This document shows, one piece after another, positions 46,732 through 63,647 of a stretch of DNA of 64,000 nt. The notes under the pieces are model-generated. The model was given only the letters and a program-made list of their open reading frames with translations. It had not been told where the DNA came from and did no database searches. The stretch is taken from positions 434,001 through 498,000 of the forward strand of contig CP145410.1 in the NCBI GenBank assembly GCA_036867785.1. Direction: 5' to 3'. The position numbers were made by a program, and so were the translations under genes. Origin of the DNA: Plasmodiophora brassicae (Eukaryota). The first letter of the stretch is position 1. Each line of letters opens with the position of its first letter.

Positions 46732-46827
46732 ATGGCCGAGGACCAGATGGCGTCGTCGAAGGTGCTCATCATGAGGTGCCATTTGATGCGATTCTTTGCT
46801 GCCACGACTGTTGAAATACGGTCTTAA
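46732..46827 (+). pseudogene. Short relic of the KRHLxR family
   Basis: EDQMASSKVLIMRCHLMRFFA resembles DDVASKEVVKRHLMRSVA of the next gene at both DNA and protein level. Confidence 0.45.
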
Positions 46828-47052
46828 TTAAACGGGAGATATAGAAGACCCAACAGAAGCGTGTTTACGACGGCGTGTGTACGACGCCATCCTGTAGCGA
46901 ACGTTCGGCTATGGCTGGAACAACCGGACAAGAGCGGGTCCGCCGAGTGGCCGTCGGCGCACCGCGAGGCGCGAACGTGCTATTTCCGGACAGTGCCGCA
47001 GTTGGGCCAGTGCTCCTGTTCCGCGGCTCAAATCGTTTCCCGCCGGAACGCG

Positions 47053-47586
47053 ATGACGAGCTGCTGTGGTGGGGCCTGGGTCCTTGCTGTTGCCGTGCTC
47101 TGTTACGCTGTGCATGCGGCCACGACGACCCTCGATTACGATGATGTGGCGTCGAAAGAGGTCGTCAAGCGTCATCTGATGCGGTCTGTTGCTGGCAAGG
47201 CGGCTGCACTCGGTTCTGCTGTCAGCGGCGGGACGCTAGCGGTGGCATCCGGAAACATGGCGACAAGTAATGACGCGGAGTCGTTGTTGAGCTCTGCTGG
47301 GTTTGCCACCGGAGGTGGTATGGTCCTCGCTGGGCTGGCCGCCAACATCTACTCCAACGCACAACTCCATCTGGCTGTCGGCGAGAGTGCCGCCCACAGC
47401 CTCACCAAGGAATCCAAATCCAAGCGTCGGCTGAATCCACATGCACGTTCCGCGCTGAAATTCGCAACTGCTGCTGTGTCGAGTATGACCTTGTCAACGA
47501 TAAGGCGCAGTCCCCCTGCCACCACTGCATTCTTGTTGGCAGGATCCGCATACTACGGGATCATGTCAGCGCTCTTTGATCCATAG
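47053..47586 (+). CDS. KRHLxR secreted family member 1 (lacks C-terminal anchor)
   Basis: Signal peptide MTSCCGGAWVLAVAVLCYAVHA, then KRHLMR, NIYSNAQLHLAVGE and RSPPATTAFLLAGSAYY. Confidence 0.8.
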   Translation: MTSCCGGAWVLAVAVLCYAVHAATTTLDYDDVASKEVVKRHLMRSVAGKAAALGSAVSGGTLAVASGNMATSNDAESLLSSAGFATGGGMVLAGLAANIYSNAQLHLAVGESAAHSLTKESKSKRRLNPHARSALKFATAAVSSMTLSTIRRSPPATTAFLLAGSAYYGIMSALFDP

Positions 47587-47935
47587 GCATCATTAAAGCC
47601 AAAGCACGTCAGAAGCGAAAAACGTGTACCGCGCCAACCATGCATGAGCGCTACGAGGGGGTTCACTGCTGTCATCACCGGGGTCTTTAAATACACCAAT
47701 TCTGCAACCATGGTTTATGACCCTATTGGATCGGGCCAGTTACGAATACAGAGCCTTCCTAGGTCATTTGCTACGTTCAACAAGTGGTGACGCGCAGCCC
47801 GTGCCCGCTCCTCTGGCGGCTGTCGGCATCACCACGTTCGTTGTCTGCTTCTAAACATCGCTCTAGCTTTGTTCTACGGTTAGGCATTACAAATGGTTCT
47901 AGTACGGTACCGGATGTCACCCGGGTTCGGGCGAC

Positions 47936-62640: not shown

Positions 62641-62683
62641 TAAGTGAGTTCGTTTGCTTGGGGCTCTTTGCGCAAGAAGCTTC

Positions 62684-62880
62684 TGTGCTAACGCCGCCGC
62701 TGCCCACTACGGGGGCGGTCGGTCGCAAGAGTCGGCGCCTGGTGATATAACGAACTGATGTATTTGGACAGGATCGTCACAGCAAGGGCCGCTGCGGGGT
62801 CGAGTACGGTCATGATCATGTGACCGGGTGGCAGCAGCATCTGAGCAGCATCATCTGAGTACTGGTACTCTGGATGAACA
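62684..62880 (-). repeat. 5' LTR
   Basis: Identical by eye to 57545-57741; lies 43 nt upstream of the ATG. Confidence 0.97.
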
Positions 62881-63647
62881 CTGTCACCGGTGGCATCCTT
62901 CTTGCAGGGTCAGGGTATTACAGCACCAAACCGCTCATCAGTTGGCTGACGTTAAAGGCCAAGGCCAAGCCCAGGGCCAAGGACCGATCCAAGAACTTTC
63001 CCGACGTTCAGCGCGTCGACCCTGCCATCGGCCCTGACAGCTTTCGCCATCACCTCCATTGTCATCTCTTTCTGAATAAAGCAACTCTGAATCGAGCATA
63101 TTGTTGATGTCATCTCTGTAGAACTACAGCGGCCGTGTGGCGACCTGTCCTTGTCGGCGCGCGTTGTAGTCTGCAGTAAGCGTGTAACCAAATCGACTAC
63201 CCTAGGTAATTGCCATTCTTCTTTAGCTAAGGTTACTAAGGTCAGAAGTACTGTCTCCTCGTCCTGCTCACTTCATGAACACGCAAATGAAGAGCCCTTC
63301 AACATTGGGAATATCATCGAAAACATGGGCAAAGTCGTTCTTGCTGTCCACTTCGTTTTCAGGCAGTGCCAAGTGTGCAATGCGAACTGGGATAATACTG
63401 GCGGTAACCAGTGTAATTTACCGCAAGTCTTATGGTTTAGTATGAGACCGCCTGATCCTTGCGAAGCAGCGCTCGTCATCGATTAGGCGTTATCAATATT
63501 GAACAGCAGCGCACGTGATCTCTCCAAGTTGTCACGACTCTACGACGACGCGTTGACCGACTGCAGTCGGTCCCCGCTCGCACGGACTTTATTCCGGCGC
63601 CGACCTGCTATGTCGACGCCTGACACTACGACTGTCCTCGTTGTGGT

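Follow-up and report, generated by a model that had tools for sequence, protein, structure and literature searches.

What kind of protein is encoded by a group of related open reading frames (ORFs) near one end of a 64,000-nucleotide (nt) stretch of the Plasmodiophora brassicae genome (assembly GCA_036867785.1, contig CP145410.1, positions 434,001 to 498,000 of the forward strand; hereafter the window, in whose numbering positions are given), and where might such proteins act? Among Brassica diseases clubroot is a major one, and its agent cannot be cultured; P. brassicae plasmodia live within host cells, and proteins at the parasite surface touch the host directly. A reading of the window from its letters alone (the sequence-only reading) had proposed a secreted, membrane-active family of unrecognised ancestry. 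We find that the ORFs belong to a family of at least eight distinct intact members, on several contigs of this one species, with no relative found outside it. The family is best explained as an orphan one of small, Cys-free, Ala-rich, alpha-helical proteins, and we give about an even chance to the reading that these helical, species-restricted proteins are exported and held on the parasite surface by a glycosylphosphatidylinositol (GPI)-type signal. Our best reading is of a new family whose kind is familiar: parasites have other orphan families of surface or secreted proteins.

A protein family found in one species

The loci of the family in the window, together with one claimed earlier that we do not count, are the following.

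47053-47586, + strand: M1 (member 1), 177 amino acids; signal-peptide-like N-terminus and helical core, with a stop codon that precedes the linker and tail
47587-47851, + strand: decayed 3' end of M1, with linker-like homology to about 47673 and a tail remnant at 47771-47851 in a different frame
48549-49271, + strand: M2 (member 2), 240 amino acids; full plan including basic linker and C-terminal hydrophobic tail
56351-56998, + strand: M3 (member 3), 215 amino acids; full plan; the sequence taken for structure prediction
57302-57544, + strand: 5' piece of the pseudogene M4, family positions about 98-165 only
62886-63075, + strand: 3' piece of M4, with an LLAGSGYY helix and basic linker in one frame, hydrophobic tail and stop in another
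46732-46830, + strand: claimed relic, unsupported as a family member

M1, M2 and M3 are homologous along their whole length, with 37-43% pairwise identity in the alignment, and a profile made from eight family members recovers all three from the six frames of the window at E values of 6e-91 to 3e-69. The sequence-only reading had thus correctly picked out three related + strand ORFs, and all four motifs by which it defined them (KRHL[LM]R, YS[HN]xQ[FL]HLAxxE, RxAxK[LF]AxAA and R[ST]PPxTxxFLLAGSxxY) stand in the alignment exactly as quoted. Its relic at 46732 did not hold up: there was no tblastn match at E <= 10, and the profile score (E 2.9, 4.5 bits) is noise. The stretch sits within RNA-derived contigs that are colinear from 46001 to 46832-46851, beside a neighbouring Ion_trans gene; as a family relic it is indistinguishable from chance.

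Run exhaustively over 1.84 billion representatives, an HMMER profile search gave nine proteins at E <= 0.001, four of them the window's own (the three ORFs and an 85-amino-acid pseudogene ORF). The remaining five (P0004, P0006, P0008, P0009 and P0010) fall in clusters named Plasmodiophora brassicae, and P. brassicae names are carried by six of the six clusters looked up. P0008, P0009 and P0010 are distant members (E 1e-10 to 9e-8), and P0006 is P0004 under a different gene model. Among 5.8 billion clusters, a word-indexed search returned only the window's three proteins and two P. brassicae proteins; a word-based search with the 8-sequence profile gave at least five members among the matches listed, all already known, and another with the conserved core of P0008 gave only P0008 itself (these word-based protein searches covered proteins of like length, and fused or split forms are outside their scope). 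A second small cluster is made up of P0004 and P0005, which are 75% identical and lie on one contig, their accession numbers differing by three. Scans of the members against Pfam and NCBIfam produced sub-threshold noise only (MOM1, Trypan_PARP, DUF4431 and EhxA, at E 0.02-1.7). The proposal of a lineage-specific family without recognised kin is therefore upheld, and the profile search that had been suggested as its check brought up no strong match to a characterised housekeeping family.

Public databases do attach names to some members. XXQ33672 (also SPQ96838) is called 'DUF4126 domain-containing'; no Pfam-A row for that domain appeared at E <= 10 in P0005, P0013 or any of the 12 sequences scanned, and what DUF4126 and XXQ33672 have in common is a Gly/Ala-rich, hydrophobic composition. 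Nor did Pfam scans at that threshold reproduce the three labels 'DUF4126 domain-containing' (P0005/P0013), 'Protein kinase domain-containing' (P0009) and '(mitochondrion)' (P0006). P0006 looks like a mis-modelled N-terminus fused to the C-terminal half of PBRA_000276. A full-text search on paralogues outside the window found no paper naming PBRA_000276, PBRA_004514, PBTT_03831, PBTT_08529 or PBTT_04137, and the searched text of a 2026 pangenome preprint (10.64898/2026.10.14.759018) has no passage on the family; in both cases a listing in a supplementary table is still possible.

For transcription, four public runs were placed on 46001-57700: X1, X4 and X11, from three studies, and X15. The first three contain GT..AG / CT..AC joints of 45-62 nt in neighbouring genes, and X15 has continuous cover without joints; we therefore take X1, X4 and X11 to be RNA-derived, an assignment that rests on these spliced joints, and X15 to be DNA. 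M1 is transcribed and unspliced: single colinear contigs span it in each run (47041-47706 in X1, 47042-47660 in X4 and 47013-47682 in X11), reaching from just upstream of the ATG to 74-120 nt beyond the stop, which bears out for this copy the claim that the intact genes are intronless. M2 is also transcribed, being covered in parts (48432-48854 in X4, 48563-48830 in X11 and 48802-49278 in X1). Contigs of X1 and X4 hardly touch M3 and those of X11 not at all, which says nothing about its expression. A lack of transcription, which the sequence-only reading had allowed would count against it, is thus not what the three studies show for M1 and part of M2. PMC4471660 gives P. brassicae genes an average of 4 introns of 60 bp, and by that figure an intronless family would be unusual in this genome.

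Protein layout, the terminal tail and what it may mean

The family plan runs from a signal-peptide-like N-terminus through an Ala-rich four-helix region and a basic linker to an uncharged tail that ends the protein. By Kyte-Doolittle 19-residue means, calculated for eight members, hydrophobicity lies mainly at the two termini. The mean is 1.86-2.42 for the C-terminal tail in all seven tail-bearing members and 1.42-2.33 for the N-terminus in seven of the eight members, the exception being XXQ34298, a short gene model (as modelled it has the tail only; P0011, a longer protein of its cluster, does have a hydrophobic run at the N-terminus). Both termini reach at least 1.42 in six of the seven tail-bearing members. 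The N-terminal hydrophobic run is 13-20 residues long, and in the five core members a rule-of-thumb script places a candidate cleavage site, with small residues at -3/-1, after residue 22.

The tail is the more distinctive end. Charged residues, Gln, Asn and His are all absent from its last 20-24 residues in each of the seven members that bear it. This uncharged run opens with small residues (Ser, Ala, Gly or Thr, e.g. SAGCATTVSTS, STGATTVPS and SSAIVAAST) and closes in a hydrophobic block of 12-14 residues, beyond which there are 0 residues in 7/7; the 25 residues preceding the tail hold 6-11 Lys plus Arg in five of the seven. A small-residue run followed by a hydrophobic block with nothing after it is the layout of a GPI-attachment signal, and the pattern (small omega region, short spacer, terminal hydrophobic block) is present in all seven, as a pattern match only. 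The earlier suggestion of a signal peptide joined with a terminal, GPI-like hydrophobic tail thus appears to hold across the family. Alignment and hydrophobicity table together place every Cys within the signal peptide or the tail, and the mature protein would therefore be without disulfides.

The region between the termini is less uniform than had been supposed. In M1, M2, M3, PBRA_000276 and PBTT_03831 the means of the internal Gly/Ala-rich helices are no higher than 1.0-1.58, segments above 1.6 being confined to XXQ33672 (1.75 and 1.70) and a private insert of XXQ34298 (1.83), and PBRA_004514 has no internal segment that reaches 1.0. In M2 a polar insert occupies the place of the first Gly/Ala helix of the other members. 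With means below 1.6 in six of eight members, the first helix segment absent from M2 and none internal in PBRA_004514, the 'hydrophobic hairpin' of the sequence-only reading is not conserved as a membrane-like element. What all eight members share without exception is a set of nine residues: H41, A93, Y100, L107, E111, R130, A132, K134 and A138. At the KRHL site the core members have KRHL[LM][RK] and the distant ones EGHVKR, KQHLIQ and VRHAKH, with only the His invariant.

An AlphaFold2 model of M3 from the 8-sequence alignment (mean predicted local confidence, pLDDT, 65; predicted template-modelling score, pTM, 0.51) folds residues 32-69, 75-117, 127-149 and 156-172 into helices, followed by a linker of low confidence and, at 198-214, a last helix; an earlier run on 5 sequences (pLDDT 50) was left out of the fold search. 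Foldseek found 0 matches in the PDB at E <= 0.001 (best E 0.9), and the ESM Atlas gave no usable match by features and structural template-modelling scores of at most 0.43 by query. The best rows of an exhaustive structure aligner (VIA) were generic helical hairpins, and the tool's own note attaches little weight to a Z under about 13 where the model is helical. These rows were 5los, the secreted helical hairpin PIIN_05872 of the root colonist P. indica (Piriformospora) (Z 9.0, root-mean-square deviation (rmsd) 2.4 over 83 residues), and 8s2p, the Borrelia PFam12 outer-surface protein BBH37 (Z 8.8, with 122 residues aligned at rmsd 4.1). In either case the match covers the family's 32-115 hairpin, at sequence identities of 5-11%, and the likeness is one of shape only, with scores within the range of unrelated helical models; a metacyclic invariant surface protein of T. 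brucei (5vtl; Z 7.2, rmsd 3.4 over 111 residues) was likewise not above helical background. On this model we would call the fold a helical hairpin or bundle, one to which no relative can be assigned.

From the layout we infer signal-peptide cleavage, GPI attachment, a surface location and, with these, any role at the host interface. The proteins would enter the secretory pathway via the N-terminal signal peptide, and the C-terminal signal (basic linker, small-residue run and 12-14 terminal hydrophobic residues) would then tether them to the outer face of the parasite plasma membrane. They would thus be interface proteins of the zoospore or plasmodium surface, not soluble toxins, and M1, its anchor signal lost, would be released as a soluble form. 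On this reading the family would share its layout with the GPI-anchored surface families of other parasites (trypanosome invariant and variant surface glycoproteins, apicomplexan surface antigens), in which a signal peptide is followed by a long helical ectodomain and a GPI-type signal at the C-terminus, and which likewise are multigene, partly tandem, accompanied by pseudogenes and limited to one lineage. There is no sequence relationship between those families and that of P. brassicae, which differs also in being small (at least eight members), in its Cys-free mature protein and in giving no hint of switching or antigenic variation.

Several points weigh against a GPI-tethered surface family. 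Its signal peptide and GPI signal are assigned by sequence pattern, with the omega site read by eye; a terminal hydrophobic segment without cytosolic residues could also be a plain membrane anchor; and a GPI transamidase in P. brassicae is something that the reading has to assume. Five of the invariant residues (H41, Y100, E111, R130 and K134) are polar and lie inside helices, which may point to a dedicated site for binding or catalysis, something a mere coat would leave unexplained. Synonymous divergence (dS) near saturation, moreover, makes the ratio of non-synonymous divergence (dN) to dS, given below, a rough one. A bolder version, which we think quite unlikely as a whole, would have the GPI-tethered bundles form a coat at the interface of plasmodium and host cytoplasm, with a polar cluster (His41/Tyr100/Gln104/Glu111/Arg130/Lys134) that binds a host or lipid ligand, anchor-less proteins of the M1 type shed into the host cell, and the whole class missed by effector pipelines.

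It is possible, if on balance doubtful, that the proteins are soluble secreted effectors acting in the host cell or apoplast, the tail being removed or irrelevant and KRHLLR serving as a processing or host-targeting signal. The signal-peptide-like N-terminus would suit this, as would an acidic patch and the conserved KRHL 15-20 residues past the likely cleavage site, the transcription of tail-less M1, and the family's restriction to one species and its position next to a mobile element. Known effector motifs that come shortly after a signal peptide are RxLR(-dEER) and the PEXEL RxLxE/Q/D; KRHL[LM][RK] (RxLxR/K) matches neither and keeps only its His through the eight members, the membrane-anchoring tail is retained in seven of them, and mature proteins without Cys are unlike typical apoplastic effectors. 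It strikes us as unlikely that these are plain single-pass membrane proteins, anchored by the C-terminus in the secretory or endomembrane system of the parasite, that lack a GPI and play no part at the host interface. Their layout would be the same as that of a GPI-linked protein, and an uncharged run of 20-24 residues could by itself span the bilayer. It is the absence of any residue after the hydrophobic block in 7/7, together with the small residues before it, that argues for the alternative, this being the usual mark of a cleaved GPI signal and not of a stop-transfer anchor; housekeeping membrane proteins, besides, are rarely limited to one species.

The idea with which the sequence-only reading began, that of membrane-active proteins akin to alpha-pore formers whose Gly/Ala helical hairpin inserts into host membranes, we now hold to be highly unlikely. 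In the model the Gly/Ala-rich helices 32-69 and 75-117 do form a long hairpin, two members (XXQ33672 and XXQ34298) have the internal segments above 1.6, and the MakA, AhlB and XaxAB toxins figure in very weak structural rows. These toxin rows have an E of 3-4 in Foldseek and a Z of 7.0 in VIA, and hundreds of helical proteins with no relation to them surround them, so that the structural comparison, another of the checks proposed, shows no fold match to pore formers above background at this model quality. The hydrophobicity of the hairpin, moderate where it is present, is not conserved either, given the polar insert of M2, the lack of any segment of 1.0 or more in PBRA_004514 and the five members at or below 1.58. 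That the ORFs are not genes at all, being chance frames or an annotation artefact, has a negligible probability: nothing beyond the absence of a known domain speaks for it, and against it stand eight paralogues with conserved motifs on several contigs, dN lower than dS, and the RNA-derived contigs over M1 and M2.

Published P. brassicae effector screens (PMC8595600, PMC8282356 and PMC4471660) drop proteins that have a transmembrane helix or a GPI signal. Under such filters the tail-bearing members would have gone unexamined, which would explain the family's absence from discussion. If the proteins are surface-anchored, they become candidate parasite-surface markers and candidates for host recognition; if they are not, this is one more orphan family. 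Overall the find is useful and not surprising.

Age and decay of the copies

The window copies are old. Besides being 37-43% identical to each other, they are 43-47% identical to the second cluster (P0004/P0005), and the three distant members stand at 22-30%; the only closer pair, that at 75%, lies at another locus outside the window. In a maximum-likelihood tree of 9 rows, 0/6 inner branches were well supported and only that 75% pair, PBRA_000276/XXQ33672, was recovered (82/98), so that the tree gives no order of duplication. Nei-Gojobori comparison of the window copies, another suggested check, gives dN of 0.46-0.57, dS of 0.80-1.24 and gene-wide dN/dS of 0.41-0.59, values which indicate protein constraint that is probably relaxed relative to typical housekeeping genes; being gene-wide, and at such dS, they cannot test positive selection. 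The 'birth-and-death' evolution that had been proposed for the cluster is accordingly half right: copies are decaying and loss is current, while at this identity and dS the window duplications are no sign of recent birth.

M1 has lost its end. Homology runs on in frame past its stop (47584-47586) to about 47673 (tblastn aligns P0004 and P0005 over 47053-47673); further on, the tail remnant at 47771-47851 matches residues 208-232 of P0005 at 59% identity (tblastn E 0.016), and the piece 47648-47851 matches the tail positions of the profile at E 0.11. Homology beyond the stop and an out-of-frame tail remnant make M1 a derivative that lost linker and tail. The sequence-only reading, in which M2 and M3 had added the tail, thus had matters reversed: the tail is the family norm (seven of eight members), is ancestral, and was lost by M1.

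M4 is a dead copy, with its 5' half missing, its frame changed and an element inserted. Its 5' piece has a tblastn E of 1.6e-14 to M3 and a profile E of 6.5e-22 (piece 57356-57616), and begins 300 nt after the M3 stop, at family position about 98; neither tblastn nor a three-frame view found a signal peptide or first helix upstream. At the 3' side, tblastn finds 62883-62993 (frame 3) and 62992-63072 (frame 1), with a joint E of 4e-5 to P0004, and the profile finds 62859-63104 at E 4e-4 and 62956-63072 at E 2e-3, so linker and tail are in different frames. The split pseudogene that had been noticed at 57362/62881 is therefore real, and what lies between its halves is a long terminal repeat (LTR) retrotransposon.

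57545-62880, - strand: Ty3/Gypsy-type LTR retrotransposon in M4, 5,336 bp, cutting the M4 coding line at 57544/57545
57545-57741 and 62684-62880: its LTRs, 197 nt each and 100% identical
57540-57544 and 62881-62885: 5-bp target duplication CTGTC, read from the sequence

A direct repeat of 201 nt at 100% identity marks the LTRs. The gag-pol of the element is a single uninterrupted ORF of 1629 amino acids (57751-62640) with Pfam matches to RVT_1, RT_RNaseH, Integrase_H2C2, rve and Chromo; LTRs, target duplication, reverse transcriptase, RNase H, integrase and chromodomain together identify it as Ty3/Gypsy. In the DNA run X15, a contig of 3,407 nt matches 54812-57544 and passes directly into the sequence of 62886 onward, which is the empty site. 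Since X15 and the window have one listed difference across an 11.7-kb stretch, the insertion must be very recent and polymorphic; and since the empty-site contig and the window run colinear as far as the insertion point, the 5' truncation of M4 is the older event. LTR sequence is also seen at many other junctions in all four runs (loose ends at 57541-57548). Given identical LTRs, an open frame, absence from this site in X15 and these other junctions, the element, apparently an intact one, looks recently active. One RNA-derived contig of X11 has a 54-nt GT..AG joint within LTR sequence (57577-57632), which suggests spliced or read-through transcripts containing LTR copies somewhere in the genome.

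Upstream motif and neighbouring genes

Two of the three intact copies are preceded by the same short sequence.

48523-48537, + strand: first copy of the 15-nt motif CCTCATTTGCAATCG, ending 11 nt before the M2 ATG
56334-56348, + strand: second copy of CCTCATTTGCAATCG, ending 2 nt before the M3 ATG

These are the only exact copies in the window, and M1 has none; an upstream alignment of M1, M2 and M3 found conservation limited to this motif of M2 and M3, and nothing wider. The motif may act as an initiator or promoter element common to both genes, or be a leftover of duplication.

The family cluster is interleaved with ordinary genes, three spliced ones separating M2 from M3. They are the gene for POP1, an RNase P/MRP subunit (49273-51678, - strand, 3 introns); a gene at about 51850-54190 (+ strand, 8 introns of 45-62 nt), for which the single ORF tested had no Pfam match; and a gene at 54275-56353 (- strand, at least 3 introns). 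Directly upstream of M1 lies an Ion_trans fragment (45847-46401, - strand) that is unrelated to the family, as are other genes of the window: Exo_endo_phos (4986-6233, - strand), a calponin-homology protein (33981-35564, - strand), an RGS-domain protein (40250-41668, + strand) and a PfkB-family kinase (41804-42964, + strand). From 24001 to 34000 the G+C content is raised (62-66%, vs. 51-59% in the rest of the window) and many long frames overlap on both strands, as is typical of GC-rich coding DNA; the block includes an alpha/beta-hydrolase gene (24420-25709) and a DUF4495 match (27807-28877).

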